DNA from: Bacteroidia bacterium | GTDB lineage: Bacteria; Bacteroidota; Bacteroidia; UKL13-3 | DNA length: 64,000 nt | Assembly: GCA_041665785.1 (NCBI GenBank) | Contig: JBAYIE010000006.1 | Location: 38,021 to 102,020, forward strand | Direction of reading: 5' to 3' | In this document: positions 1,527 through 61,745 of the stretch, one piece after another | How positions within the stretch are numbered: the first letter of the stretch is position 1 | Layout of the letters: each line of letters opens with the position of its first letter | Program-made: the position numbers and the translations under genes | The notes under the pieces: generated by a model | Seen by the model: only the letters and a program-made list of their open reading frames with translations | Told to the model about the DNA's origin: nothing | Databases searched by the model: none

Positions 1527-4073
1527 TTGTTCATCAATCACATGAACATGAAAAAATGGATCGCCCTTGGCTTTAGTATATATTCAACCTTCCTGCAAGC
1601 CCAAACATCTCTGCCTGCAGCCTGGAATTTTTCATCGCCCGGCATTACATCGCCACCCATAGGCTGGACGCTTGACAACAGCCGCGCCGGTGGCACGGGA
1701 GGACAAACCTATGCATTCGGTACCGGAGATAATTTATCCTGTCGCTTTGATGCCGCCGGTGAAAACCTGATCGTATTTTTCGCCGATAAACCCGGACCCC
1801 TGAGTTATTATGTGAGTCCGCAAAATGCCGGAAATCCCTGGTCAGGTTTGTTTGAAGTACAGGAAAGCGCCGATGGAAATTCCTGGTCAAACCTGCGCAC
1901 GTTTACCAGTCAGGCTACTACCACTACCAATTTTACAAACGGCAAACGCAGCGACAATCTTTCTGCAACTACACGCTATGTGCGATTTGTGTTTACTACC
2001 AAAACAAGCGGAAACTTTGCGCTCGACAGCGTACTCATACAACAGGCACCACCACCGTTAAACGCCAGCATTCAAATCAAACAAAACGGGAATGTAATAG
2101 TAGGTGGTTCTACTTTTATACTTGGCAATGCATCGGCCACAACCTTTACTATCGAAAACAAAGGCACCGGACAAACCCTGCACCTCGATTCGGTTTCGTT
2201 TAGCGGAACAACGCCCAATGATTATTCGGTGAGCAACTTTCCGGACTCCATTATTGCAAACGGTAATGCGACTTTTACCCTGAATTTTTCAGCAGCTCAA
2301 AACGGAAGTCGTAAAGCCGCTATGAATATTTACAGCAATGATGCCGATCGACCCAAATACACCATCAACGTTTACGGAATAGGCGGAAACTATGCTACCG
2401 AACCCGCTCAGCCTCCGGTGTTAAACACAAGCAATGTGATGACTTACGGATTTGATGCGACCTTGTTGGCGCCTGTGCAGGTACCCGAGCATTATATTGT
2501 GCTCTTGTATAAAAATGGTGCCGGCGACGACAAACCGATGGATGGTGTAACCTACAAACGCGGCGATTATATTGGCGCAGCGCAGGTGCTGTATGTGGGC
2601 GATAGTGCAAGCCTGATAAAACCTACCCATATACTATCAAATACAGGTTATGCAATGAATGCCTTTTCGTTTAATGGTCCAGCCGGTTTTGAAAATTACT
2701 ACACCACCAATTCGGCCTTTCGCGGATTGATCACTCCCGGTAAAAAACCGGGTACGTATTATAGCGGAATCAACTCGGGCGCACCCAATTTTGTAAGCAC
2801 CCTGTCGCAAAAAATCAATCCGCACGATACCATTTATTATAGCCAATACATTTCACGCTTTATTCAACCTTACCTGACACGCGATACGATTGGGGGCAAA
2901 AAAATAATGAATTGCGTTTATACAACACTTCCTTATGTGTACACCGAACCCTTCCTGTTCTGGAATGGCACAAACGGAGCTACCCTAACCCGCGAACATA
3001 CCTATCCGCAAAGCTGGATGCCAACCCGCAGCCTGCCTACCTGGCCCAATGATGCAAATGGTAAAGAACTGCCTGAATACAACGATTTGCATCATTTGTT
3101 TCCGGCCGATCAGGCGTATGGAAATGGCGTACGCTCAAATTATCCGTTGGGAGAAGTAGTAACCAACCCACAACCTTCTCCGAGTGGTTTGGGTGTATTG
3201 GGAAAAGACCTCAACGGTAATACCGTGTACGAACCCACCGATGCACATAAAGGCGATGCAGCACGGGCCATCTTTTATATGTGTACGGCATACAACGGCA
3301 TCAGCGGAAACAATTGGTCCATTCCTTCATCGCAGGATCAGGATGTATTGAAGAAATGGCATTTTCAGGACTTGCCGGATAATTGGGAAATTGCCCGTCA
3401 TGAATTTATTTATTCCATTCAACACAACCGCAACCCGTTTATCGATAGCATCAATTTTGCATGCCGCATTGACTTCCGCAACATGACCTGGATAGCGAAC
3501 CCGGGCAGTTGTGGTATCGACGAGCGCCGGGTAACTGTGCTGACCCCAAATGGCGGACAAGATCTTAAAAGTGGTACCATTACCCTGGTAATGTGGGATA
3601 GCTATGCCATAGATTCTGTAAAAATAGAACTCTACCACGCCGACACCTTCTTTGCCTATTTAGGAAAAGAAGAAGCAGCACGCGAAAAGTTTTTCTGGAA
3701 AGTAGGATACCATACCGAAACCCTGAAATCCAGCGATTTTAAAATTCGCGTAACAGATCTCCATTCTCCTGCCTTTGACCTAAGTGACGATTATTTCAAA
3801 ATCGAATTCCTCCTCAATGCTCTGGACGAAATAAATAATACATACGATCTTCAGGTTTACCCTAACCCAACCTCGGGCACAGTATATCTGCAAGCTTTAA
3901 ACGGACTACAAATCCAATCCATTCGTGTATTGGATTTGCTGGGAAAAACACATTATGAAAATTCAATCCATGCAGATAATCTTGCCCAAATTCAATTGGA
4001 TAAAAAAGGAATGTATTTGGTTGAAGTAGTAACAGATCGGGGAGTGGTGAGGAAAAGGGTGGTGAGGGAATGA
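1527..4073 (+). CDS. Extracellular endonuclease I family nuclease with N-terminal beta-sandwich domains and a T9SS C-terminal domain.
   Basis: Signal peptide MKKWIALGFSIYSTFLQAQ. Endonuclease I motifs REHTYPQSW, LHHLFPADQAYGNGVRSNYPLGEV, DAHKGDAARAIFYMCTAYNG and HNRNPFIDSINFACRID. C-terminal VYPNPTSGTVYLQ...VVTDRGVVRKRVV looks like a T9SS sorting domain. Confidence 0.75.
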   Translation: MFINHMNMKKWIALGFSIYSTFLQAQTSLPAAWNFSSPGITSPPIGWTLDNSRAGGTGGQTYAFGTGDNLSCRFDAAGENLIVFFADKPGPLSYYVSPQNAGNPWSGLFEVQESADGNSWSNLRTFTSQATTTTNFTNGKRSDNLSATTRYVRFVFTTKTSGNFALDSVLIQQAPPPLNASIQIKQNGNVIVGGSTFILGNASATTFTIENKGTGQTLHLDSVSFSGTTPNDYSVSNFPDSIIANGNATFTLNFSAAQNGSRKAAMNIYSNDADRPKYTINVYGIGGNYATEPAQPPVLNTSNVMTYGFDATLLAPVQVPEHYIVLLYKNGAGDDKPMDGVTYKRGDYIGAAQVLYVGDSASLIKPTHILSNTGYAMNAFSFNGPAGFENYYTTNSAFRGLITPGKKPGTYYSGINSGAPNFVSTLSQKINPHDTIYYSQYISRFIQPYLTRDTIGGKKIMNCVYTTLPYVYTEPFLFWNGTNGATLTREHTYPQSWMPTRSLPTWPNDANGKELPEYNDLHHLFPADQAYGNGVRSNYPLGEVVTNPQPSPSGLGVLGKDLNGNTVYEPTDAHKGDAARAIFYMCTAYNGISGNNWSIPSSQDQDVLKKWHFQDLPDNWEIARHEFIYSIQHNRNPFIDSINFACRIDFRNMTWIANPGSCGIDERRVTVLTPNGGQDLKSGTITLVMWDSYAIDSVKIELYHADTFFAYLGKEEAAREKFFWKVGYHTETLKSSDFKIRVTDLHSPAFDLSDDYFKIEFLLNALDEINNTYDLQVYPNPTSGTVYLQALNGLQIQSIRVLDLLGKTHYENSIHADNLAQIQLDKKGMYLVEVVTDRGVVRKRVVRE

Positions 4074-26159: not shown

Positions 26160-26715
26160 ACAGGTACGTCGCGATGTACAACCGCGTTGCGGTTGGATGT
26201 CACGTCAGCTGCCTACGCCATCTGTTATTGAGGTGAAACCGCGTTGCGGTTAGTTGCTGCTGGCTATGGTTTCAGCTATTGGGTGAGATATAGCATTACG
26301 ATCAGTTGCTTGCTATCTTTGGCTTCGGTTATTGAGGTGTAACCGCGTTGCGGTTAGTTGCGGTTAGTTGCTGCTGGCTATGGTTTCCGTAAGCAGAGTG
26401 ATATTGCGTTACGATTAGTTGCTCGCTTACTTTGGCTTCGGTTATTGAGGGGTAACCGCGTTGCGGTTTGTTGAGGTTAGTTGCTGCTGGCTATGGTTTC
26501 CGTTAGCAGAGTGATATTGCGTTGCAATTAGTTGCTTGCTGTCCTTAGCTTTTGTTATTGAGGTGTAACCGCATTGCGGTTAGTTGCATCGTTGCATAAT
26601 GATAGATTATGAATCGTTTCCTTCCCCTGCACTTCGGTGAGGCGATGCATTCTTCCCGCCGCCGCTAAAGCTACCGCGGGCAATGCATTTTTCATTCTTC
26701 ATTCTTCATTTTCTC
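26160..26715. repeat. Composite intergenic repeat locus 4, including a ~3.4-copy tandem array of ~105-119 bp units (26223..26590). Each unit carries the AACCGC-GTT-GCGGTT hairpin. The locus ends with CCCGCCGCCGCT and (CATTCTT)n boxes.
   Basis: Units begin gttattgagg(t/g)g(t/a)aaccgcgttgcggttagttgc...gctgctggctatggtttc...gatattgcgtt(a/g)c(g/a)attagttgct...ctttggcttcg. Terminal gatgcattcttcccgccgccgctaaagctaccgcgggcaatgcatttttcattcttcattcttcatttt. Confidence 0.75.
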
Positions 26716-33736: not shown

Positions 33737-33828
33737 AATTATGTGGTTGAATTGGGGTACGAATTACGGGGTCAACGAGCCGAATTACAAGCGATGAATG
33801 AGAACTTCGGAAATTTATTTAGAAATAA

Positions 33829-34262
33829 TTACGAATGACGAAGTACAAAGTACGAAGTAGCTAAGCCTGGAACTTGTCCTTAATTTAGATCTATCTCTTA
33901 CCAGAGGACTATCATAATTACGAATTACAAATTACGAAGTACGAAGTGGCTAAGCCTGGAACTTGCCCTTAATATAGATCTTTCTCTTATTAGAGGATTA
34001 TCATAATTACGAAGTACAGATTACGAAGTACGAAGTGGTTAAGCCTAGAACTTGTCCTTAATTTAGATCTTTCTCTTACCAGAGGATTATCATAATTACA
34101 TAATTACGAAGTACAGATTACGAAGTACGAAGTGGCTAAGCCTGGAACTTGTCCTTAATTTAGATCTTTCTCTTATCAGAGGATTATCACAATTACATAA
34201 TTACCAAGTACGATGTGGTCACATCCGGAAACTTGGTCTCATTTTCGATTTATCTCTTACAA
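33829..34262. repeat. Tandem direct repeat array: 4 good copies plus 1 degenerate copy of an ~85-98 bp unit containing TACGAAGTACGAAGTGGCTAAGCCTGGAACTTG.
   Basis: Units acgaagtacgaagtggctaagcctggaacttgtccttaatttagatctttctcttaccagaggattatcataattac repeat with a few substitutions. Sits between gmk and a four-helix-bundle gene. Confidence 0.8.
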
Positions 34263-34754: not shown

Positions 34755-35130
34755 TCCACTTTCCACTTCGTAATTTGTACTTCGTAATTCCAAACCCTTC
34801 CCCGTGACCAAAAGGCCCTAACTTAGCACCCATTCATTAGCGGGCCCACTTCGTAATTGGTAATTGGGTTAGTAGTTATTTTGTTATTTAATTCAGGCAT
34901 TCTGGTAAGCCACTTCGTAATTTGTACTTCGTACTACTTAGTTCGTACTTCCATTCCCGTGACCAAAAGCCTCTAACCTTTGCACTCATCCACATGCGTA
35001 CCCACTTCGTACTTCGTAATCCGTCATTCGTACTTATATTCCCGTGACCAAAAGTCCCTAACTTAGCACCCATTCGTTAGCGAGCCCACTTCGTACTTCG
35101 TAATCTGTACTTCGTACTTTTTAATCCGTA
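34755..35130. repeat. Tandem repeat array of 3 copies: TTCCCGTGACCAAAAG(G/T)CCCTAACTTAGCACCCATTC(A/G)TTAGCG(G/A)GCCCACTTCGTA(A/C)TT. Shares the CTTCGTACTTCGTA motif in inverted orientation with the 33829..34262 array.
   Basis: Three copies keyed on cccgtgaccaaaag. taagccacttcgtaatttgtacttcgta is the reverse complement of tacgaagtacgaagtggcttag in the other array. Confidence 0.75.
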
Positions 35131-35133
35131 CTT

Positions 35134-36003
35134 CTAAATTACATTATTTATCTGTTCCTTAATCTTCTCCAACTCATCCTTCATCTCCACCACCCGTTGC
35201 TGAATTTTAAAATGATTGGCTTTAGAACCCATGGTATTGATTTCGCGGCCCATTTCCTGTGCAATAAATCCGAGCTTTTTACCCGATGATTTCATACGCA
35301 TGGTTTCCAGAAAATACTGGCAATGCTGGATCAGGCGTGTACGCTCTTCGGTTACATCAAACTTCTCAATATAGTAGAGCAGTTCCTGTTCGAAACGGTT
35401 TTTATCATAAGAAGCTTCGCTGATCTGTTGCAGCTCCTGATCAATTTTGGTGCGCAATGCATCGATACGTTCCGGTTCCAATACTTCTACTTCTTTCACA
35501 AGTTGGATAATTGCCTGAGTCATACGGTTCAGTTCATCCGACAACATCTCCCCTTCTTTGATTCTGAACTTTTCAAATTCTACAAAGGCTTTGTTCAACA
35601 CATCCATCAGTATTTTCATGTCCTCTTCGCGGTTCTCATCCACCGTTTGTTGAAACAGGTTGGGAAGACTCATGATGTTTTGTACAATATTTTCCGTTCC
35701 CAGGTTAAATTCCTTCACCACATTGGTCAATTCATTGAGGTAGTAACGGGCTACATCTTTGTTGAGCGGTAATACTTTGTCTTCGGCCAGTTTGAACACC
35801 ACATTTACGTTAACCTGACAAGATCCGCGTTCCACAAGGCGATTCAACTCCTTACGCACCTCGGTCTCCTTGTTTTGCCAACCTTTGGGAAGGCGCAGGT
35901 TCAGTTCCAGAAATTTGTTGTTCAGGGACTTGAATTCCACTTTAACGGCAAACCTTTCGGTTTCCAGTTCGGCTTGTCCAAAGCCGGTCATCGATCGTAG
36001 CAT
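35134..36003 (-). CDS. yicC: YicC family stress-induced protein (YicC/RNase AM family).
   Basis: MLRSMTGFGQAE...KSLNNKFLELNLRLP N-terminal signature, plus a C-terminal DUF1732-like helical region. Confidence 0.85.
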   Translation of the reverse strand: MLRSMTGFGQAELETERFAVKVEFKSLNNKFLELNLRLPKGWQNKETEVRKELNRLVERGSCQVNVNVVFKLAEDKVLPLNKDVARYYLNELTNVVKEFNLGTENIVQNIMSLPNLFQQTVDENREEDMKILMDVLNKAFVEFEKFRIKEGEMLSDELNRMTQAIIQLVKEVEVLEPERIDALRTKIDQELQQISEASYDKNRFEQELLYYIEKFDVTEERTRLIQHCQYFLETMRMKSSGKKLGFIAQEMGREINTMGSKANHFKIQQRVVEMKDELEKIKEQINNVI

Positions 36004-47639: not shown

Positions 47640-50600
47640 CTACCGGTTGATGACGATCCGTTTGTTGGTTACCGAGTTATCTATTCTCAAATTGATCCAG
47701 TAAACTCCCGACGACTGACCTGATAAATCAAGGTTGAAGGAGCCGGCATTCAGTTCCTTCTCTCCTTTATAAATCACTTTACCCAAAACATCGACCACCT
47801 CTATGCTTACCCGGAATGCAGCTATATCTTGTAACGATACGGTTACATGACCATCTCCGCTTGGGTTTGGATAAATCCTGGCTGCATTCAAAAGATCTAA
47901 ATCCATCAATCCGCTCTTGATGAAATTGAATGCATCGCTGATGCTTTTGCAATTGGAGGCATTTCCTGTTTCCACCGAATAATTACCATTTTGCGTGGCA
48001 ATCAGATTTTTTGAATTTGCACCACTTATGTTGTTGCCATTCAACTTCCACTGATAGGTTGCGGCAGTAACCGAACACACTAATGTATCGCTGCTGCCAT
48101 TGCGTGTAACAACCGGTTTAACCGGAAGTACATCAATTGTAACAGTTAGCGAAGCTGTTGTATCGGTGGAACAACCGGTATGCACAAGCGCCCTGTATTG
48201 ACGGGAAACAAATGCCGAAACAGTGGTGTTGGTATGTGTATACATTTCATTCGCACTTCCTGCAATAGGTATCCAACTACCCGCATTGTCTTTGAAAATC
48301 CAACCGGTTACAACTCCTCCGTTGATAAAACCACTTGCAGTAACTGCAATGGAATTTCCAGTACAATAAATTGTTGCAGTCGAAGTTGGAACCACGCTGT
48401 TCGCATTCCCCTGCAATTGGGGGTTGATGGTTATCTGCAATGTTCCGGTTGTATCGTAACTGCAGTTAGCGGTATTGAATATAATGGCCCGGTATTCACG
48501 CACCTTGGTATACGAAACATTGGTTGAAGTATGATAGAGAGTGAAGCCGTTATCGTTTATCGCAGTCCAGAAGTTCGCAACGCTGTCGCGGAACAACCAC
48601 TTTACAACACTGCCCGAAAATCCACTTACATTAATGATGGCCGGGGTACCTGCACAAATTGAAGTGTTGTTGCTGGCCGGCATAATAGCGAGATTACTTC
48701 CGTTGGTTATAATATTGATATTTACCGTTACCACTCCAGAACTATCGATGCTACAACCTGAAGTATTGTTCAACAAGGTGCGGTATTCACGGATTATATT
48801 GCTACTTACCTGTGTATTGAAATCATTGATTGATGCAGCGCTACCGGCATTCAGGTATTGCCATTCTTCTCCGGTATTCCGGAACAACCATTGCTGAATG
48901 GTATACCCAACAGGAGTATTGATAAATACATTCACCGGGTTGCCTGAACAAACAGTCAGCTGAGATGCCTGAGCCGTTGTGGCATTCACTCCATTTTGTA
49001 TCGGGTTGATGGTAACAGTGGCCGGTGCAGTGGTATCAAAACTGCATCCGGAAGAATTGATTACCAGAGCTCGGTATTGACGCACAAGCAATGAAGAAGT
49101 CTGGGTATTTACATCACTCCACGATGAAGAAGTAATATTTAAGATTTGCCAGTTATCGGTTGGATTATCGCGGTACATCCAGTATTTCACAGATGATCCG
49201 TTGAATGATCCCAGGGTGATGGTAACCAGTGCACCTGAACATACATTACTATTAGATAAAGCAGGAACAACAGTATTTTGGTTACCATATCCAATCGCAC
49301 TAACATTCACTCCAACGGATGCAGAGGTATCGGTGGGACAACCTGCACCTTTAACAACTACCACTTTATATTGGCGGGTAAATCCAGTGCTGGTTTGTGT
49401 AGCATAATCGTTGAGCGAAGTGGCTGATGTAATGGCCAGATTTGTCCAGCCTCCATTGTCTGTATTCTGCATCCAGCGTTGAATGGAATTGCCACTTCCC
49501 GGATTAACGCTGAGGTTAATCGTAGCACCTGAACATATGGACGTGCTGGCCACTGCAGGAACTATCGTATTATCGATCCCGATTGTACGCGGATTGATGG
49601 ATACGGTCTTAACGGCACTGCTGTCCATACTACAACTGTTATTGTTTTTTATGATAATACGGTACGCTCTTGTTACCGGTGCACTCACAGTAGTATTGTA
49701 ATCCGTTAAAGTTGTCGCACTTCCTGAGTACAAAGTCATCCATGGACCATTGTTGTTGCTGTATAACCAGGATTGTACCGTATGACTTCCTAGACCTGAG
49801 GTTCCTAAAATTACCGGAGTACCGGTACAATATGATCCACCATTTGAAGTCACCATGATATTGGTATCTGTGCCGAGCATACGGGGAGAAATAAAGGCTG
49901 TATCGTTGATGGAAGTTGTATCATACCGGCAACTTGCTGATTTGTAAATCAACAATGCATATTGCCGGTTAATGGCATTTGTCGTATTGGTATTGTAATC
50001 GGTTATGCTGATGGAGTACCTGTGCATATTGTTCCATGCTCCGCTGTATCCATCGCGGTACAGCCAGGTGTTTAATTGTACACCACTCAATCCATATGCA
50101 TCTACATCAATGAAGGAGCCGGTACAAACTCCCTTATTGCCATTGATTGCTGTGCTCGAAAACGTATCGGTTCCGTATATTAATGGATTGATATATACTG
50201 ACACTTCACCGGAAGTATCAAGCGTACAGGAGTTGCTCTTGCTTATTATTGCACGGTACCTGCGGTTCACCAGACTCACCGTATTTACAGACTGTATGAT
50301 GCCCGACAAAGAACTATACATAGGAATCCATGGACCTAAATCTTCACTGTATAACCAGTATTGTACAAAATTGCCCGATCCGGCATTTATATTGATATTG
50401 AATGAATTCCCTGAACAAACATTAGACCCTGATTGTGAAGTTGGAACAATGCTGTTGTCGTTTCCGTATGTTTTCGGATTAATGGTAATTACAGATGCCG
50501 CGGTGGTATCGATCCGGCAATTGCCCGCTTTATACAAAATAGCGCGATAACCCATTGTATAGGAGTTTTGTTGTGAAGCAGCAAACTCACCAAATTGATA

Positions 50601-53600
50601 ATTGGTGACCGGAGTAATATATCCTCTGTCTATCCAGTTTCCTCCGTTAAAATTATACAACATTCGGATAACAGTGGTATCCGATGCAACATTCATCGAA
50701 ACAGTATAATTCATGCCCATACAGGTTGATAGTGGTACTACCGGCGATCTTGCATTGTTATTTCCCAATACAACAGGATTGATGGTTACGGTAAGTTTTG
50801 CAGTTGTATCTAAACGGCATGTGGAATTGTTGTTGATGATGGCTACATAATCGCGTGTAACGGTTGTTCCTACATAGGTGTTGTAATCTGAAATATTGTT
50901 GGAATTGCCATTCAATAATACCGTCCACGATTTATTGTTATCGCGCGAGAGCCATCGTACAATTGAATTGCCACTTCCTGCTGTAACTGCAATGCTTTGA
51001 ACAGGTGAGCCGGCACAAACATTTACAGAGGTAGCGGTTGGAACTTTTGAAATATCCGTACCTGCAATTTTTGGAGAAATGGTAATGGTTACAGCATTCG
51101 TAGTGTCGTAGCTGCAATTCTTTAAGAGTATTACTTTGTATTGCCGGGTGGTTACATTGCTGAAATAGGTATTGTTATCGTTGATACTGGATGCTGAGGT
51201 AACAGAATGCGTAAACCATTCACCATTATTATCCTTGTATAACCAGCGTTGAATGGTAGAACCCGCTACACTTAAACTGATACCAGCGGTATTTCCGGCA
51301 CAGATCGACGCGTTCGTTGTAGTAGGTGTTGCTGCGCTTAATCCTCCGGTATAATTACGTAAGAATACACTATCCATTCGAGTTGAATCAGAAATACAGG
51401 AGCTCGTCGAAACAACAATGGCTCTGTAAAAACGCCAGGTGGAAGAGGCAACTGCTGTATTGGTATGGTTAAAGAATGATGTACTGCTTGAAGGTATTAC
51501 CTGCCAGCTCATTTTATTGTCATCACTGAAGAGCCACCGTTCGATGTAAAAGGAGGTGCTGACGCTCATACTTACAGTGTTTCCGGCACAAACAGTATCT
51601 GCTGAATTCACAAATGCAGCCAATCCGCTAATTCCATAAGTTTTATTTTTAATAAAAACATCTTTTACGCGATTTAGAGTGTCGTAACTGCAGGTGGCTC
51701 CTTTCAATACAATCGCTGTATAGCTCTTAATGGTTCCCGGAGGATATAAGGTCGTATTATCGGTGATACTGGAGGACTGGGTGGAGGAAGTGAAATTCTG
51801 CCAATTGCTTTTGTTAATGGCATACAACCATTTCCAAACAGAATTTCCATTGCCTGGTGATAAACTCAGACCTAAGTTGGTTCCTGCACATATGGTATCG
51901 AAAGCTGATATGCTGATACTGGAATCATTTCCGTAACTGATCGCTTTGATAATTACAGCTACCGCTTGTGTGCTGTCAAAATCACAGGAACTGGTATCAC
52001 TGATAATAGCCCGGTACAACCGCGTAACGGAATTGGAAACTTGCGTTAAATTATGGGTATAAGCATGTACATCTGAATTGTACGCATTCACCCAGGGACC
52101 GGTTACCCCATTGTCGCTGTATGTCCAGCGTTGCACTGTATACACACTGGAAGTTGGTACACTCAGGGAAACCGTAGATCCTGAACACATGGATGTCTTG
52201 TTTGTTGTTGGCAAAATAGCACGGTTACTGATATTCGAACCCTGAGGTTGAATCAATAGGGTTAATGCTGAAGTGGTGTCAGCCTGACACGTATTCGTAT
52301 TGTTTACAATGGTGCGGTATGAGCGGCTGACAGGTTCTGCGACCCATGAATTCAAATCGGTTATTGTACTGTTGGTATTGTTGTTTGTGAACATGTTTCT
52401 CCATTCGCCGTTATTATCGGTAGTGATCCACTTTGCAATCGTGTAACCCGAAGAAATATTTTTCAGTGCAATATCAACGGGTGTTCTGTAACACCAGATG
52501 TTTCGGGTGCTCGAAGGCTGCAAACTGCTGATATTACCACGTACCAATGGACTGATGAGTATATTAACTGCATTGGACGTATCGATGGAACAAGCTACCG
52601 GGTTCGTGATAATGGCACGATAAGCCCGGTTAACCGGACTACTTCCGTTGATATTGTATTCTATAATACTGCTTGCATTCGTTGTATAACCAAAATCTTC
52701 CCAATCGCCATTGTTGGAACTCATCACCCATTTCAAAACCGTTCCGGTATAGGTGCCTGAATTGAGGTAAATTTGCGGCGTTGTACTGCGGTTACATACC
52801 GATGAAACACTGGAGAGAGGCGTTACGGAAACTTGTCCGCGAACACTTGGATTGATAGTCACGCTGTATGCTGTCGATGAATCATAACTGCAAGCATTGG
52901 TATTGTCAACAATCACGCGGTACGACCGGGTAGTTGTAACAGGAACATAGGTATTGGTATGAGAATAAGAATTGGTTGCCGATGATGGAATTTCATTCCA
53001 GGCCCCATTCAGGTTGTCGCGGTAGATCCATCTGCGAACACTGCCTGCAGTTGGCAGCGTATTGGAAATAACATTCACTCCAACCGGTGATGTACTGCAG
53101 AAAATACCGGAAGCAGAAGTAATGGCTACTGCACCAGCGTTTCCTTTTGTGCGTGCATTGATTTGCACGGATACTGCAGCTGTAGTGTCATATGAACAAC
53201 CATTGGTATAAGTAATAGCGCGGTACGACCTTGACGTGTTGGCCAAAACCTGCGTATTGGATTCATAAAAATTGGTTGTTGAACTGGAACTGCTTATTTC
53301 TAACCATGGTCCGGTTTGGTTATTGCGATAAATCCATTTTTGAATATTGTTGCCAACTAAAGAAACATTGAATGTATTGCCACTGCAAATACTTACTGTG
53401 TTAGCAGTAGGTTGCAAAGCCGGAGCATTACCGTAACCATAAGGTTTGAGTTGTACCGACAAAATCTGCGTTGTATCTATGCTACAGGTTCCCTGTCTTA
53501 CCAAAAAAGCACGGTAATCACGATTAGTAGCTGAATTCACATAGGATTTGTTATCATATAAATAGGTTGATGCAGTTGAGCTCGCAAATTCTGACCAGTT

Positions 53601-56141
53601 ACCACCATTGTCGCGATACATCCATTTTTGCACAGACCCTGAATAGTTGTTGAGGTAAACCGTTAAGGTTGAACCTGAACAATTCACTGTTGAATTGGTA
53701 ATTGGAGTGTGCGAACTTGTTGTTCCATTCATCAAGGGTGATAATACCACTGTAACAGCGTTGGAGGTGTCTGTTGTACAGGTATTATTGTTGTTGATTA
53801 CAACTTTATATTCCCGATTGGTTTGAGTCAATACACGTGTTCCTGCCGTGCTTTCGGTGTATGTAAAAGAGGTGCCGGTCAAATTTTTCCAATCACCTCC
53901 ATTGTCGCGCGACATCCACCTAACCACACTAAATCCGCTCAGAGAAGCACAGGTAATTTGCAAACTTGTTCCACTGCATATGGCATTTGAACTGGCTGTA
54001 GGTAAGATATTGGGATTGTTTTGCCCCACACGTTGATTTACCATTAGGGTTATCGATTGCGTAGTATCGTATTTGCACATTCCCTGATTGTAAAGAATTA
54101 CACGGTATGTTTTACTGGGATTATTTGTGCTGGTATAATCACTTGGATTGGTGGAGTTATACCCGAATGCATACCAGTTTTGAGAAGCTAATTCTCTTCC
54201 AATCCAATTGCTTACCGTATACCCGGTTGGCGGTACAATTCCCAGTTGCGTATTGTTTCCATTGCAAATGTCCGACTGCGTGGAGTAGGGAGTTACAGCC
54301 AATGAACCTCTGATTAACGGATTGATCTCCACATGTACTTCATTGGAAGTATCCAGGCGAAGTGTTTCCAGATTTTTTATCAAGGCACGGTAACTGCGTA
54401 TGGTTTGTGAATTCAGGCTTCCTGTATTATTGTCGTAAAAGGTTGTATTGGTTTGTGCAGATAACACATTCCAGTCGCCGGTTTTATTATCGCGATAAAT
54501 CCAACGGCCAATCAACATACCTGTTGGCAGCGAAATGTATCCGCTTACCTGTGCACCAACACAATAGGCTGGTTGGTTGATGATGGGTGTAATATCTGCC
54601 AATCCTCCGGGTGCAGGCAATTTGATCAAAACCTGAACTGCCGGTGTTGTATCTATACGGCATTGAATGGTATTGTTGAGCAATACCCGGTAAGCACGTT
54701 GTGTATTGCTGCTCATGTTGGTATTGTTGTCGGTGTAGGTATATCCTGAACCCAGCTGTACCCAATTGCCGGTATTGTTATTACGGTATATCCAATAGCT
54801 AACCGGTGTACCATCGCTAATCTGCAATTTTACCTGTGCCCCTGCACATACTTCTGTTAATGAGGTTGCGGGAATGGCCTTGTTTGTAATTCCTCTCCGG
54901 TTAGCTCTTACGGTGTAAAAAACCGAAGCTGAAGTATCATAACTGCAATTCAAAGAAGCATTGTTCACCACAGCACGCACTTCACGCGTAAGATCATTTA
55001 AAATATTGCTGTTGCTGGTAAGTGATGCGGTAGTGCTATTGCTGAAATTCGTCCACGGCCCGGTTGCGCTATCTCTGTAATACCATGATCGGGATGATGG
55101 CCCCTGCATTTGAAATGTTTGGTTACTCCCGGCACAAACATCAATCAAACTGCCTGTAATCTGAGGTACCATATTCAACAGATAGCGGCGTTGTGCCGCC
55201 TGAATAAACAAGGAAACTTCATCCGATGTATCAGCACTGCAGGTATTGGAATTCAGGAGTACTACTTTATAACTACGGTTGATTGACGCAGAAACTGCCG
55301 TGTTATAATCGATTGCAGTAGTGGTGGCTGAACTAAAAACATTCCATGAGGTAGCACTTCCATCCCGGTACAACCAGTTGCCGATCTCCATGGGCCATTC
55401 CAATTGTAAACTCACACTGCTTCCCCCGCATATTTGCTGTTGTGTCAAAATCGGTTTAATATTTACATTGTTTCCGGCAACCACCGGATTTATTTGTATA
55501 GCTACGCTTGCTGAAGAATCCAGTTCACATGTAGCCGGATCCTTTACCATAACCCTGAATTCGCGCAGGGTATTGATATTCACATAAGGCATTTGTATGT
55601 TGAGTGATTGGCTGCTGCTGTTGATATACACCATCCAGCTTCCTCCATTATCGCGGTAAATCCATTGCGTTATCTGTGTACCCGCATTCATGATTCTCAA
55701 TGTCACAGTGCTTCCGCCACATGCCTGATAAGCAGAAGCCGATAATGAAATTCCATCGTTGTTTCCATAAGATGGAGGTACCACATTTACATCGACTCCA
55801 TCTGTAGTATCACTTGCACATGAAGCGGTTGTTACAATCGCTCTGAATGTGCGTACGGTTGGCACCGTTTGCGACATATAAAAATTGATATTGTCGCTGT
55901 TGGTATTGTACGCAATCCAACTACCGGTATTATTATCGCGGTAAACCCAACGGGTAACCGGTAAACCAGTAGCATACACGTATACGGTATTGCCCGAACA
56001 AATAGTTTCGTTTGATACGGTTGGTTTATAATTCGCCACTGCTCCACACTGTGCCCACGACGTTCCATAATTGGTCAACAGCAAACCAAAAATCAGCAGG
56101 AAAGAATACACAGATTTAAAAAGGATGTCGAAGTTTTTCAT
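47640..56141 (-). CDS. Giant (2833 aa) T9SS-secreted protein composed of about 27 divergent tandem ~100-aa repeats; probable adhesin or surface protein.
   Basis: Signal peptide MKNFDILFKSVYSFLLIFGLLLTNYGTSWAQ. Each repeat carries W(L/I)YRDN.G.W, R.YRA(I/V) and C..DTS..V.V.I.P motifs (for example WIYRDNKTGDW, WLYKDNNGEW, WMYRDNGGNW). C-terminal IYPNPSGDGHVTVSL...GVYWINLRIDN sorting domain. Confidence 0.8.
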   Translation of the reverse strand: MKNFDILFKSVYSFLLIFGLLLTNYGTSWAQCGAVANYKPTVSNETICSGNTVYVYATGLPVTRWVYRDNNTGSWIAYNTNSDNINFYMSQTVPTVRTFRAIVTTASCASDTTDGVDVNVVPPSYGNNDGISLSASAYQACGGSTVTLRIMNAGTQITQWIYRDNGGSWMVYINSSSQSLNIQMPYVNINTLREFRVMVKDPATCELDSSASVAIQINPVVAGNNVNIKPILTQQQICGGSSVSLQLEWPMEIGNWLYRDGSATSWNVFSSATTTAIDYNTAVSASINRSYKVVLLNSNTCSADTSDEVSLFIQAAQRRYLLNMVPQITGSLIDVCAGSNQTFQMQGPSSRSWYYRDSATGPWTNFSNSTTASLTSNSNILNDLTREVRAVVNNASLNCSYDTSASVFYTVRANRRGITNKAIPATSLTEVCAGAQVKLQISDGTPVSYWIYRNNNTGNWVQLGSGYTYTDNNTNMSSNTQRAYRVLLNNTIQCRIDTTPAVQVLIKLPAPGGLADITPIINQPAYCVGAQVSGYISLPTGMLIGRWIYRDNKTGDWNVLSAQTNTTFYDNNTGSLNSQTIRSYRALIKNLETLRLDTSNEVHVEINPLIRGSLAVTPYSTQSDICNGNNTQLGIVPPTGYTVSNWIGRELASQNWYAFGYNSTNPSDYTSTNNPSKTYRVILYNQGMCKYDTTQSITLMVNQRVGQNNPNILPTASSNAICSGTSLQITCASLSGFSVVRWMSRDNGGDWKNLTGTSFTYTESTAGTRVLTQTNREYKVVINNNNTCTTDTSNAVTVVLSPLMNGTTSSHTPITNSTVNCSGSTLTVYLNNYSGSVQKWMYRDNGGNWSEFASSTASTYLYDNKSYVNSATNRDYRAFLVRQGTCSIDTTQILSVQLKPYGYGNAPALQPTANTVSICSGNTFNVSLVGNNIQKWIYRNNQTGPWLEISSSSSTTNFYESNTQVLANTSRSYRAITYTNGCSYDTTAAVSVQINARTKGNAGAVAITSASGIFCSTSPVGVNVISNTLPTAGSVRRWIYRDNLNGAWNEIPSSATNSYSHTNTYVPVTTTRSYRVIVDNTNACSYDSSTAYSVTINPSVRGQVSVTPLSSVSSVCNRSTTPQIYLNSGTYTGTVLKWVMSSNNGDWEDFGYTTNASSIIEYNINGSSPVNRAYRAIITNPVACSIDTSNAVNILISPLVRGNISSLQPSSTRNIWCYRTPVDIALKNISSGYTIAKWITTDNNGEWRNMFTNNNTNSTITDLNSWVAEPVSRSYRTIVNNTNTCQADTTSALTLLIQPQGSNISNRAILPTTNKTSMCSGSTVSLSVPTSSVYTVQRWTYSDNGVTGPWVNAYNSDVHAYTHNLTQVSNSVTRLYRAIISDTSSCDFDSTQAVAVIIKAISYGNDSSISISAFDTICAGTNLGLSLSPGNGNSVWKWLYAINKSNWQNFTSSTQSSSITDNTTLYPPGTIKSYTAIVLKGATCSYDTLNRVKDVFIKNKTYGISGLAAFVNSADTVCAGNTVSMSVSTSFYIERWLFSDDNKMSWQVIPSSSTSFFNHTNTAVASSTWRFYRAIVVSTSSCISDSTRMDSVFLRNYTGGLSAATPTTTNASICAGNTAGISLSVAGSTIQRWLYKDNNGEWFTHSVTSASSINDNNTYFSNVTTRQYKVILLKNCSYDTTNAVTITISPKIAGTDISKVPTATSVNVCAGSPVQSIAVTAGSGNSIVRWLSRDNNKSWTVLLNGNSNNISDYNTYVGTTVTRDYVAIINNNSTCRLDTTAKLTVTINPVVLGNNNARSPVVPLSTCMGMNYTVSMNVASDTTVIRMLYNFNGGNWIDRGYITPVTNYQFGEFAASQQNSYTMGYRAILYKAGNCRIDTTAASVITINPKTYGNDNSIVPTSQSGSNVCSGNSFNININAGSGNFVQYWLYSEDLGPWIPMYSSLSGIIQSVNTVSLVNRRYRAIISKSNSCTLDTSGEVSVYINPLIYGTDTFSSTAINGNKGVCTGSFIDVDAYGLSGVQLNTWLYRDGYSGAWNNMHRYSISITDYNTNTTNAINRQYALLIYKSASCRYDTTSINDTAFISPRMLGTDTNIMVTSNGGSYCTGTPVILGTSGLGSHTVQSWLYSNNNGPWMTLYSGSATTLTDYNTTVSAPVTRAYRIIIKNNNSCSMDSSAVKTVSINPRTIGIDNTIVPAVASTSICSGATINLSVNPGSGNSIQRWMQNTDNGGWTNLAITSATSLNDYATQTSTGFTRQYKVVVVKGAGCPTDTSASVGVNVSAIGYGNQNTVVPALSNSNVCSGALVTITLGSFNGSSVKYWMYRDNPTDNWQILNITSSSWSDVNTQTSSLLVRQYRALVINSSGCSFDTTAPATVTINPIQNGVNATTAQASQLTVCSGNPVNVFINTPVGYTIQQWLFRNTGEEWQYLNAGSAASINDFNTQVSSNIIREYRTLLNNTSGCSIDSSGVVTVNINIITNGSNLAIMPASNNTSICAGTPAIINVSGFSGSVVKWLFRDSVANFWTAINDNGFTLYHTSTNVSYTKVREYRAIIFNTANCSYDTTGTLQITINPQLQGNANSVVPTSTATIYCTGNSIAVTASGFINGGVVTGWIFKDNAGSWIPIAGSANEMYTHTNTTVSAFVSRQYRALVHTGCSTDTTASLTVTIDVLPVKPVVTRNGSSDTLVCSVTAATYQWKLNGNNISGANSKNLIATQNGNYSVETGNASNCKSISDAFNFIKSGLMDLDLLNAARIYPNPSGDGHVTVSLQDIAAFRVSIEVVDVLGKVIYKGEKELNAGSFNLDLSGQSSGVYWINLRIDNSVTNKRIVINR

Positions 56142-59153: not shown

Positions 59154-59500
59154 ACCGAAAGGCGGTTATTGTTATCGGGATATACAGCAACAGGCTTATA
59201 TTGTTTGGCTTCTTCGAAATCCATGGTGGCGTATGAAATGATAATGAGGTGATCTCCCACAAAGCCTTTACGGGCGGCAGGACCATTGAGGCAGATAATG
59301 CCTGAATTGCGCTCTCCCTTGATGATATAGGTTTCGAGGCGTTCGCCGTTGTTTACGTTCACTACCTGTACCTTCTCGTTTTCGATCATATTGGCTGCCT
59401 CCATCAATGCTTCATCGATGGTAATGCTACCCACGTAGTGCAACTCCGTTTCGGTAAGTTTGGCGCGGTGTATCTTGGATTTGAGTACTTCTATTTGCAT
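59150..59500 (-). CDS. panD: Aspartate 1-decarboxylase.
   Basis: [29 protein letters not shown] with the pyruvoyl-forming G-S cleavage site. Start chosen at MQIEV. The ORF track extends 29 codons further upstream. Confidence 0.85.
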
Positions 59501-59607
59501 AAAATCGGTGCAAATGTAGGAGTAATATTTGATATTGCCTCGAAGCGAAACTATGAGTACCTTCGTCCCCTTGTATAAACTCACCATCTACGAGGTTATA
59601 CAAACTA

Positions 59608-59694
59608 CGGAGAGTTGTCAGAGTGGCCGAACGAGCGCGCTTGGAAAGCGCGTATACTGTAACAGGTATCGAGGGTTCGAATCCCTCACTCTCC
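59608..59694 (+). tRNA. tRNA-Ser (anticodon GGA), type II with a long variable arm.
   Basis: ggagagt acceptor stem pairs with actctcc. Anticodon stem gcgcgc / gcgcgt with loop ttGGAaa. TTCGAAT T-loop. Near-identical in architecture to E. coli tRNA-Ser(GGA). Confidence 0.85.
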
Positions 59695-59701
59695 GCAAAC
59701 C

Positions 59702-59730
59702 CAAAATCCCGCTTTTGCGGGATTTTGTAC
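59702..59730 (+). terminator. Hairpin immediately after tRNA-Ser.
   Basis: aaaatcccgcttttgcgggatttt: a 10-bp stem with a 4-nt loop. Confidence 0.55.
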
Positions 59731-59736
59731 GTTAAC

Positions 59737-60003
59737 GAGCACTGCGTCAAAAGCCCCAAAGCTTTTGTAAGCAGGGCGAAGTGAACGTACAACAAATTCC
59801 CGCCTAGGGAATTTGGGTTTGTTTCTCCCCCCAACGGGATCGCGCGCCAGCGCAATCTTTCCTGATTAGTTAGTTTCCGATAGCACTGCGTCAAAAGCCC
59901 CAAAGCTTTTGTAAGCAGGGCGAAGTGAACGTACAACAAATTCCCGTCTAGGGAATTTGGGTTTGTTTCTCCACCCAATGGGATCGCGCGTTAGCGCAAT
60001 CTT
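59737..60003. repeat. Two tandem direct copies of a ~122-bp element (59737..59859 and 59882..60003) downstream of tRNA-Ser.
   Basis: agcactgcgtcaaaagccccaaagcttttgtaagcagggcgaagtgaacgtacaacaaattcccg(c/t)ctagggaatttgggtttgtttctcc(c/a)ccca(ac/at)gggatcgcgcg(cc/tt)agcgcaatctt. Copies differ at about 6 positions. Each contains aattcccgNctagggaatt and aaagc..gcttt hairpins. Confidence 0.8.
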
Positions 60004-60102
60004 AAAGTATTATTTATATGTAAAATGCAATTCTTTTGAAGGATTCCCAAAAATATGCACCACCCATATTTCAATTTAAATTTGAATAAATCCAATATAG
60101 TT

Positions 60103-60501
60103 TCACTTTACCCGGAATCCTAATTCATAACAACTATTATCAGTGGGATTATAATTAAAAGTGCAACCTGAATTCTCCCGATTATTCTTTTTTAGTTTTG
60201 ACTCATCATTATATTTATTTACAGTGTCATAACACTTTCGATTTGAATAAACCATAAAGTAATAAAAAGTAAAGAAGCCGAGATAAGCCAGAGCCAAAAA
60301 AAAAATTATATAATCTCTTTCTACCTGATTGATCGTTTTTATTGAGATCAAAGTCATACCTATTGTTATACTCCAAAGAATAGTAATTATTGTCATAAGA
60401 TTTAGTGCTCCCCAGTGATGCCTATCGTTTTTTAGAAATCGAAAGAAGTCATAACATCTATAATAAAATATATTTAACAATGTCTTCATTTTACCCTTCA
60501 A
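60103..60501 (-). CDS. Small membrane protein (2 transmembrane helices), translationally coupled to the upstream Fic gene.
   Basis: 132 aa with hydrophobic segments LMTIITILWSITIGMTLISI and IIFFLALAYLGFFTFYYFMVY. Overlaps the Fic gene by 4 bp. AT-rich. Confidence 0.5.
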   Translation of the reverse strand: MKGKMKTLLNIFYYRCYDFFRFLKNDRHHWGALNLMTIITILWSITIGMTLISIKTINQVERDYIIFFLALAYLGFFTFYYFMVYSNRKCYDTVNKYNDESKLKKNNRENSGCTFNYNPTDNSCYELGFRVK

Positions 60502-61580
60502 CCAGCTTTTAACAGATTAAACAAATCAATATTGATATACAACATATCTCTACCCACCTTTTCACCTTTCAAAACACCGATCTTCTCAAGGTCTTTCAGG
60601 TATTTGCTTGCCGTAAAGCGTGTGATGCCGAGTTGATCTTCCAATGCCGATATCCTCGCGTAGGGTTGATGAAACAGCACTTCTACCAGTTCTTTGGAAT
60701 AAATCTTTGGCCGCTTCAACTTTACTTTCTCAATTGTTTTTTCTAACAATAACTTAATTCCCCGGATAGTTTTGATCGTATCCGTTGCAGAATATGCTAC
60801 CGATTCCAGCATATATACAATCCATTCTTCCCAATTTCTATTTTGACGAACATTATTCAACCCTTTATAATATTGCTTCTTCTGTTTAATTATAAATGAA
60901 CTTAGGTATAAAATAGGCAACTCAAGCAATCCTTCATGAATGAGATAAAGAACATTTAAAATACGCCCGGTTCTGCCATTTCCATCATAAAATGGATGTA
61001 TAGATTCAAACTGATAATGCATTATTCCCATCCTAATCAATGGATCCATATCCTCGTTCGTTCCATTTATATATTCTTCCAGATTCTTCAGTTTATCCTG
61101 AATAATATCTTTCCCAAACGGGGGGGTATAAATTACTTTACCAGTTCGGACTTGCTTTAAAGCAGTTCCGGGCTGATTTCTTATCCCGGCATTATTCCCC
61201 ATCAGGCATTCCTGAATCTTCATCAACTCTCGGGTCGTTATAAGTTTTTTCTTTTTGATCAACTCATATCCCAGCCACATCGCTTGCTTATAATTCAGAA
61301 CCTCTTTAACAGCAGCATTCAAATCCGTATTACCAACCGAATATGCCTTATAAAGCTCATCCTGTGTGGTTACAATATTTTCAATCGCTGAACTATCTCT
61401 GGCTTCACGCAGTACCAGACTGTCTAAAATGATTACCGGGTTTGGGATCAGACCGGTCATTCCTTTGAGTTCGGCCAAGGCTTTATTCGCTTGAATCGCT
61501 TTATTATAAACCTTGGGTGTCAATGTTAACTTTGGCGGTAATAACGGAAGTTTATTATATGGTTTATCTGGGCTGTACAT
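60498..61580 (-). CDS. Fic/DOC family protein (class II, N-terminal inhibitory motif, C-terminal winged-helix).
   Basis: Fic motif HPFYDGNGRTGR. Inhibitory S-SAI-E-N motif near the N-terminus. C-terminal HTH-like region (ISALEDQLGITRFTASKYLKDLEKIGVL). AT-rich. Confidence 0.85.
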   Translation of the reverse strand: MYSPDKPYNKLPLLPPKLTLTPKVYNKAIQANKALAELKGMTGLIPNPVIILDSLVLREARDSSAIENIVTTQDELYKAYSVGNTDLNAAVKEVLNYKQAMWLGYELIKKKKLITTRELMKIQECLMGNNAGIRNQPGTALKQVRTGKVIYTPPFGKDIIQDKLKNLEEYINGTNEDMDPLIRMGIMHYQFESIHPFYDGNGRTGRILNVLYLIHEGLLELPILYLSSFIIKQKKQYYKGLNNVRQNRNWEEWIVYMLESVAYSATDTIKTIRGIKLLLEKTIEKVKLKRPKIYSKELVEVLFHQPYARISALEDQLGITRFTASKYLKDLEKIGVLKGEKVGRDMLYINIDLFNLLKAG

Positions 61581-61589
61581 TATCTGGCC

Positions 61590-61745
61590 ATTTTTGATAT
61601 GTTAATTTTTTCACGTTTTTTCAACATATCTCAAAAATACGTGAATTGCTTTAACATATCCAAACAATATGTTTAAAGTATTGGGTTATTTCAACATATT
61701 GCAAAAATGGGTGCGTTCCTTTAACATATCCCCTCCCCAAAAAAC
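61590..61745. promoter_or_regulatory. Upstream region of the Fic gene with six reiterated TT(C/T)AACATAT(C/T) motifs in both orientations, arranged as two ~45-bp direct repeats.
   Basis: atatgttaa, ttcaacatatctc, tttaacatatcc, caatatgtttaa, ttcaacatattgc, tttaacatatccc. Units ttcaacatatctcaaaaatacgtgaattgctttaacatatcc and ttcaacatattgcaaaaatgggtgcgttcctttaacatatcc. Confidence 0.5.

Follow-up and report, generated by a model that had tools for sequence, protein, structure and literature searches.

The two 122-nt repeat units behind the tRNA-Ser(GGA) gene in the window, i.e., the whole 64-kb stretch of Bacteroidia DNA analysed here, appear from comparison with related sequences to be the distal module, present twice in tandem, of a conserved element located on the 3' end of tRNA genes. 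They represent neither a private duplication nor a classical att scar, and they are unlikely to be two classical sRNA genes. The order of parts in the element is tRNA trailer, terminator hairpin, central hairpin and U5, which together constitute a palindrome of about 125 nt, followed by a C-box and by P3, a hairpin of the form GGGATC..AATCC. The module consisting of U5, C-box and P3 is amplified one to four times, and the duplicated block of the window additionally contains the hairpins H1 and H2. An earlier interpretation made from the letters of the window only (hereafter the sequence-only reading) had regarded the units as structured elements linked to the tRNA that merit comparison with homologous copies, and all of this is borne out, since the units belong to a conserved family. 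The element was previously uncatalogued and its motif is missing from Rfam: when Rfam 15 was applied at gathering score and at E<=10, the units stayed uncovered in the window and in four homologous loci, and only the tRNA reached the threshold.

Repeats in the window were detected with Tandem Repeats Finder, BLAST and pairwise alignment. Tandem Repeats Finder describes 59738-60003 as a tandem repeat with a period of 144 nt, 1.8 copies and 95% matches, while units 1 and 2 are identical at 117/122 positions (96%) by BLAST and alignment. Two tandem units of 122 bp differing at about six positions had been reported; the two 122-nt copies are indeed there, but the number of differences is five (59803, 59829, 59835 and 59847-48) and the units are not arranged head-to-tail, because an unrelated spacer of 22 nt intervenes. 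All five differences map to predicted loops or single-stranded stretches. Unit 1 starts 41 nt past the tRNA and 10 nt past its terminator hairpin, and the 144-nt duplication spans H1, the right arm of the palindrome, the C-box and P3. One 35-nt piece is present twice in the window as compared with zero expected occurrences. The hairpins named in the sequence-only reading were recovered in each unit (H1, CAAAAGC-N6-GCTTTTG, and H2 with a 5-nt loop, GYCTA), along with the terminal hairpin P3, GGGATCGCGC-GNNA-GCGCAATCTT. H1 is lineage-specific and forms the centre of the nested palindrome. The fold of each unit on the plus strand beats 200/200 dinucleotide shuffles (z about -3.9). Coordinates of all features are collected in Table 1.

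Table 1 Features of the tRNA-Ser(GGA) 3' flank in the window
Feature	Position	Strand	Basis
tRNA-Ser(GGA)	59609..59696	+	ARAGORN; Rfam tRNA 47.5 bits
T5, first 15 nt of the tRNA 3' trailer, CAAACCCAAAATCCC, reaching into the 5' arm of the terminator	59696..59710	+	inverted repeats I2/I3, 15 nt, 93%
Nested palindrome, predicted four-way junction	59696..59821	+	inverted repeats; MFE -61.6 kcal/mol, z -9.1
tRNA terminator hairpin, CAAAATCCCGC-TTTT-GCGGGATTTTG	59702..59727	+	inverted repeat I9, 11 nt, 100%
Repeat unit 1, 122 nt	59738..59859	+	Tandem Repeats Finder, inverted-repeat search, BLAST, alignment
H1 hairpin, unit 1, CAAAAGC-CCCAAA-GCTTTTG (arms 59748-59754/59761-59767)	59748..59767	+	inverted repeats, folding
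H2 hairpin, unit 1, AAATTCCC-GCCTA-GGGAATTT (arms 59794-59801/59807-59814)	59794..59814	+	inverted repeats
U5, unit 1, GGGAATTTGGGTTTG, reverse complement of tRNA trailer T5	59807..59821	+	inverted repeats, duplex folding
C-box, unit 1, TCCCCCC, conserved in all lineages	59826..59832	+	alignments
P3 hairpin, unit 1, GGGATC-GC-[GCGCCAGC]-GC-AATCTT	59836..59859	+	covariance-model match, pair counts
Spacer between units 1 and 2, 22 nt, not repeated	59860..59881	.	alignment
Repeat unit 2, 122 nt	59882..60003	+	same methods as unit 1; covariance-model match 59950-60006, 34.1 bits, E 3.8e-8
H1, unit 2	59892..59911	+	
H2, unit 2	59938..59958	+	
U5, unit 2	59951..59965	+	
C-box, unit 2	59970..59976	+	
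P3, unit 2	59980..60003	+	

In agreement with the previous statement on the non-coding nature of the units, just one long ORF spans the array; it is located on the minus strand (59427-59978), antisense to the tRNA, and a search of 5.8 billion proteins found no relative for the portion that covers the array. The periods of homologous arrays, 77 and 106-112 nt, are not multiples of three, and a peptide-coding ORF in the array was rejected since reading frames differ between the lineages. The discriminator base of the tRNA is located at 59695; CCA is not encoded and the next nucleotides are CAA. The window is contained in a JGI metagenome contig of 110 kb. Genes for PanD, a flippase-like membrane protein, an adenylyltransferase and a photolyase reside on the minus strand upstream of the tRNA. 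Past the repeat, an islet of low GC content (60004-61650, 28-40% versus about 45%), which looks horizontally acquired, is flanked by the array and a conserved gene for a 1136-aa DUF4175-like protein. It carries two minus-strand genes that converge on the tRNA, a small membrane ORF (60103-60501) and the gene for a SoFic-like Fic protein (60498-61580). Just upstream of the Fic gene, at 61597-61731, there are two 65-nt direct repeats, 75% identical and 70 nt apart, with internal inverted repeats around AACATAT, which may be an operator or promoter region. Further repeats in the window comprise a 113-nt tandem repeat with 3.0 copies at 26243-26587 (86% matches, sub-periods of 51-61 nt), an 89-97-nt tandem repeat with 4.3 copies at 33825-34213 (84-94% matches) that is rich in ATTACGAAGTACGAAG, and a 7/21-nt repeat related to the latter at 35088-35134. 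At the protein level, a 2833-aa polypeptide with about 30 Ig-like modules and a T9SS C-terminal sorting domain is encoded at 47640-56141 on the minus strand; its orthologues in relatives have 2808-2831 aa.

Relatives were reached via the neighbouring membrane protein, and a pattern common to the window and the locus L041 was then scanned over JGI metagenomes; note that genome and metagenome scans were made with exact patterns only. Five lineages were compared, namely the window, L041 (together with L040), L038, L052 and L057, and the units of one array are not independent of each other. Relatives in which the neighbouring membrane protein is 64-66% identical retain the order tRNA-Ser(GGA)-panD and carry a related array behind the tRNA, with one unit in L038 and L039, two in L040 and four in L041 and with a period of 77 nt. 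L040 and L041 encode an identical neighbouring protein and both stem from short-read assemblies, such that their difference in copy number could be an assembly artefact. In L038, a minisatellite of CCCAATGCCCAGTGACCAATG-like units (about 3100-3230) is situated between the array and recO. The metagenome scan returned 13 loci, two of which are true homologues: L052 has one unit behind tRNA-Ser(GGA) in a different gene context, and L057 has four units with a period of 106-112 nt behind tRNA-His. Both encode proteins with T9SS sorting domains and therefore belong to the Bacteroidota. The other 11 metagenome loci were judged non-homologous by inspection and reach at most 22 bits with the covariance model introduced below. 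Tandem hairpin repeats of the GGGGTTTGCAATCCCC type on an unrelated high-GC contig (L051, 8800-9010) are a chance match to the pattern and score 22 bits. The scan of genome contigs with the H2/trailer pattern yielded only unrelated hairpins (Thioglobus and others) that have 13-27 nt in common with the units. In total, tandem modules in one to four copies lie behind the orthologous tRNA-Ser(GGA) in three related lineages; the first P3 is found 129-146 nt past the tRNA end and always in the orientation of the tRNA in all five lineages. Past the array, the DNA is different from lineage to lineage. The 10-mer ATGCAATTCT occurs past the last unit both in the window (60026-60035) and in L040/L041 (34 nt after the unit), lineages that are otherwise unlike there.

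The array is absent from L058, a relative with a different tRNA-Ser trailer. A short structured repeat, ACCACGCGAnnnGAnTnGCGC, occurs in L058 (610-630 and 2520-2540) and in L078 (13455-13475) and is absent from the window; two of its three copies continue as GGTAGCGGGGG, and it is located near tRNA-Ser and panD in one relative and at a contig end in the relative at 87%. For the closest relatives, at 87% and 71% identity of the neighbouring protein (L030 and L031), the contigs end in or at the tRNA, and a contig that approaches from the other side (L078) ends 154 nt past the flanking gene; consequently, the window-type unit was compared with more distant relatives only. Assemblies break within tRNA-Ser or the first unit in L030 (1-90), L031 (1-20), L042 (1-33) and L043, as expected for repeated sequence.

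A covariance model, R1, was built exclusively from the units of L038, L040, L041, L052 and L057, leaving out the window. It finds both window units on the plus strand at full length, unit 1 at 59806-59866 (45.9 bits, E 1.9e-11) and unit 2 at 59950-60006 (34.1 bits, E 3.8e-8). As the model stems from other organisms, the two units are neither a chance occurrence nor a private duplication. No third unit was detected in the 64 kb, where the next match has an E of about 1, and in L001 plus 573 kb of other loci the model matched tRNA-adjacent arrays only. The shared core reads [U5]-N3-7-TCCCC-N3-5-GGGATC-RC-(3-12 nt)-GY-AATCC. Both window units contain a U5-like segment, a C-box and a GGGATC-RC..GY-AATCC hairpin in this order, and they lie directly behind a tRNA, in the same orientation and with a 5' part complementary to its trailer. 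P3 is the best-conserved part of the family. When the seven P3 pairs were counted in an alignment of 14 units, 98/98 cells proved to be standard pairs; for one pair, three lineages have A-U and two have G-C, while two pairs vary from G-C to G-U. The length of the apical part of P3 varies between 3 and 12 nt and is more compatible with a folded hairpin than with a protein site whose half-sites keep a constant distance.

The most informative property of the element is the relationship of U5 to the tRNA trailer. U5 is the reverse complement of a stretch that begins 0-1 nt past the discriminator in all five lineages and extends into the 5' arm of the terminator. T5 of the window is complementary to the U5 of each unit, with a duplex energy of -20.4 kcal/mol that was reached by 0/500 shuffles. 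In all five lineages, the first 15 nt past the discriminator find their complement 99-116 nt downstream, and none of 500 shuffles of the downstream 120 nt matched the observed duplex in any of them. The control, L058 with its tRNA-Ser lacking an array, has no trailer complement downstream. The complementarity is genome-specific and changes along with the lineage, as is evident from the T5/U5 pairs of the window (CAAACCCAAAATCCC / GGGAATTTGGGTTTG), L041 (CAACCTAATCCC / GGGATTGGGTTG), L052 (CAACCCAATGCCCC / GGGGCATTGGGTTG), L038 (CAGTTAATCCCTG / CAGGGATAACTG) and L057, where the pair spans 23 nt. In a 5x5 matrix of duplex energies, the cognate T5/U5 pair was best in five of five columns and four of five rows.

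These complementary segments enclose a nested palindrome that extends 114-133 nt past the tRNA in all five lineages and is predicted to adopt the same multibranch fold throughout, with a T5:U5 closing helix and three branches (z -7.7 to -12.4). In the window, the parts of the predicted junction are the closing helix, the terminator hairpin, a helix formed by 59725-59736 and 59781-59792 that is capped by H1, and H2. The repeat finder places the arms of the outer inverted repeat 86-96 nt apart in four lineages; the outer pair of L038 has one bulged base and was detected by duplex folding. An inner inverted repeat, between the terminator 3' arm with its T-run and an A-rich tract further on, is present in all lineages. 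In the window, the right arm contains the complete terminator in inverted form (H2) and likewise its flank (59781-59792 versus 59725-59736), which is why the units had been perceived as hairpin-rich.

Several features bear on the question of strand and of RNA versus DNA. Folding favours the tRNA-sense strand by z-score in five of five lineages and by MFE in four, and C-to-T changes at the base of P3 keep pairing on the tRNA-sense strand only. On the other hand, P3 has an invariant mismatch, C.A on the plus strand, to which a U.G pair would correspond on the minus strand. Among about 235 palindrome pairs, six G.U wobbles are seen on the plus and four on the minus strand. These counts are uninformative with regard to strand and would suit maintenance at the DNA level as well; the near-absence of wobbles is a real argument for the latter. 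All other parts of the element follow an intrinsic terminator (up to U8 in L057), and the modules would be present in read-through RNA only, a point that, like the lack of promoters, speaks against a role as RNA. Taken together, these features do not decide between the strands. We infer that the element would matter as RNA and not as DNA and that a putative factor would bind the C-box/P3 module.

Our tentative preference, held at somewhat less than even confidence, is for a structured tRNA 3'-flank element that would act in read-through RNA and/or as a terminator and insulator. Shown directly are the homology of the arrays, their architecture, the lineage-specific complementarity and the pairing of P3, as well as the lack of coding potential, promoters and direct repeats of the att type; the mechanism that follows is proposed. 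Transcripts reading through the tRNA terminator would fold as a four-way junction, the closing helix of which would pair the first trailer nucleotides, 0-1 nt past the discriminator, with U5. The tRNA precursor would thereby gain a compact structured 3' extension with one or more C-box/P3 modules, which could aid processing and stability and separate, as a transcriptional insulator, the highly expressed tRNA from the gene that converges on it. More doubtful is the further-reaching proposal of an undescribed class of tRNA-anchored structured RNA, in which the read-through trailer of tRNA-Ser or tRNA-His would form a cloverleaf-like junction with one to four factor-recruiting C-box/hairpin modules and the recruited factor would control maturation of the tRNA 3' end, termination or turnover. 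Behind the read-through RNA and insulator reading, second rank goes to an explanation based on terminators, which we nevertheless consider unlikely. Here, inverted and tandem duplication of the tRNA terminator would have created stacked convergent or bidirectional terminators that stop transcription coming in from the converging gene (in the window the small membrane ORF and the Fic gene) as well as read-through from the tRNA, with trailer complementarity as a by-product. Indeed, the neighbouring gene converges on the array in four of five lineages, a terminator scan flagged H2 of both window units on the plus strand and, in L041 and L057, hairpins of the units with a T-run behind them on the antisense strand, and the scarcity of wobble pairs suits a DNA palindrome. 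However, terminator-like sites do not fall on the same strand in the different lineages, the internal units of L041 have none, and the best-conserved parts, C-box and P3, lack a T-run on either strand. Moreover, the complementarity continues about 6 nt past the terminator stem in the window and in L041, includes the trailer from 0-1 nt past the discriminator onwards in each of the five lineages, and in L038 both sides have changed together.

The sequence-only reading had offered two explanations of its own, duplicated small RNA genes and remnants of integrase attachment sites, and neither fared well. In the integrative scenario, the array would mark the boundary of an integrative element, or what is left of one, at a tRNA gene used as a hot spot; the trailer, the terminator and the array would have come from the element and stayed behind beside the tRNA, and the units would have been multiplied by site-specific or unequal recombination. 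There is a truncated tyrosine integrase right after the array in L057 (170-aa catalytic domain, PF00589, E 5e-17), the DNA past the array varies with the lineage and in the window takes the form of the low-GC islet with Fic, the module resides behind tRNA-Ser and tRNA-His, which have similar CAACCCAA trailers, and L058 has neither the trailer motif nor the array; in Bacteroides, tRNA-Ser 3' ends are integration sites of NBU2 (PMC8816746). Against this stands that the 21-mer of the tRNA 3' end, with up to three mismatches allowed, has a single occurrence both in the window and in L001, which covers 9.8 kb past the tRNA on the side of the islet, so that the result named in the sequence-only reading as ruling out an att origin was largely obtained and the units are not classical att scars. 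Each unit instead holds an inverted complement of the tRNA 3' trailer and terminator, which att duplication does not produce. An integrase gene is absent from the window and, next to the array, from four of five lineages. BLAST of the window array against phage and plasmid collections and of the L041 and L057 arrays against plasmids gave no match, and neither did an IMG/VR scan with the H2 pattern. Fourteen IMG/VR matches to the general core pattern were chance occurrences in high-GC coding DNA, and four relatives of the L057 integrase found in IMG/VR have neither a tRNA nor the core. The P3 loop of 3 to 12 nt is also unlike a recombinase core site with fixed spacing. We consider an integrative origin quite improbable, and what survives of the att idea is a weak echo in the L057 integrase and the lineage-variable DNA beyond the arrays. 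Very improbable, in our view, are two independent trans-acting sRNA genes on either strand. The hairpin-rich units are conserved across lineages, and H2, which is terminator-like on the plus strand, followed by a U-rich tail could end an RNA there, but no sigma-70 or Bacteroidota TAnnTTTG-type promoter box is consistently placed before the units on either strand in the five lineages (apart from one isolated box on the minus strand, 51 nt past unit 2), the sequences ahead of units 1 and 2 are unrelated, and the conserved C-box and P3 would fall downstream of the putative terminator H2. Dispersed repeats of the REP/BIME, BOX or MITE type would be expected in many copies per genome; no further copies were found in the 64-kb window, L001 and 573 kb of other loci, a survey of contigs rather than of a complete genome. 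Just as little probability is assigned to a functionless, neutral palindromic tandem repeat arising by template switching and slippage at the terminator hairpin. The apparently labile copy number and the almost purely Watson-Crick arms would agree with it; yet substitutions avoid the stems, and core sequence and spacing are kept across genomes whose neighbouring proteins are only 61-66% identical and even behind a different tRNA. Other identities were rejected: a tRNA or tRNA-like gene, as ARAGORN and the Rfam tRNA model find tRNA-Ser only, and a degenerate tRNA or T-arm copy, a CsrA-type GGA sponge, a ribozyme and an integron attC site, which are without support.

Should the element act as RNA, it would represent a cis-encoded partner of the 3' trailer of a tRNA precursor, variable in copy number and conserved in a clade of uncultured Bacteroidota, and would provide a testable handle on tRNA 3'-end processing and tRNA gene insulation in this phylum. 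To our knowledge, Bacteroidota lack Hfq and ProQ, and little is known about their non-coding RNA biology. Should it act as DNA, it would illustrate how terminator hairpins seed palindromes and tandem arrays at integration hot spots in tRNA genes. Either way, model R1 now makes it possible to search for a motif that Rfam lacks.

The array invites comparison with several known systems. With attachment sites and tandem accretion, as for NBU2 at tRNA-Ser in Bacteroides (PMC8816746), it has in common the tRNA-Ser 3' end, variable DNA beyond and an integrase fragment in one homologous locus, but it has no integrase of its own and no direct repeat of the tRNA 3' end, the repeat being an inverted copy of the trailer. 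Like intrinsic bidirectional terminators at convergent gene pairs, it features GC-rich hairpins that have A-rich and T-rich tracts on their flanks and are situated between a tRNA and a gene converging on it, and terminator-like matches are seen on both strands; however, such terminators need about 40 nt, whereas the element comprises 125 nt plus repeated modules of 50-120 nt, and P3 lacks a T-run. ToxI-like RNA arrays of type III antitoxins and CRISPR arrays consist, as does the array, of tandem structured repeats, in their case of tens of nucleotides. Both were rejected as identities: ToxI requires a toxin gene downstream on the same strand, and the neighbours here are on the minus strand with no plus-strand gene downstream, while for CRISPR there are no cas-like ORFs nearby and no unique spacers, because the whole 122-nt unit is repeated and the inter-unit sequences of the relatives are themselves repeated. 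The 3'ETS-leuZ of E. coli, a short single-copy tRNA trailer, sponges sRNAs encoded elsewhere. In both cases, the functional RNA segment would derive from sequence directly behind a tRNA and rely on base pairing; the putative trailer partner in the array, in contrast, is encoded in cis, repeated and located beyond the terminator. Finally, BOX elements of Streptococcus pneumoniae have the structure boxA-boxB(n)-boxC, and the BOX and ERIC families comprise about 100 or more dispersed copies per genome that are not tied to tRNAs. Copies of the array, in contrast, are solely tRNA-adjacent in about 640 kb, one arm of its palindrome is the tRNA trailer itself, and there is no sequence similarity. What the array shares with these families is that it is non-coding and modular, that its complementary ends are predicted to fold as a long stem-loop in an intergenic location that would be transcribed, and that an internal module is present in tandem and in variable copy number.
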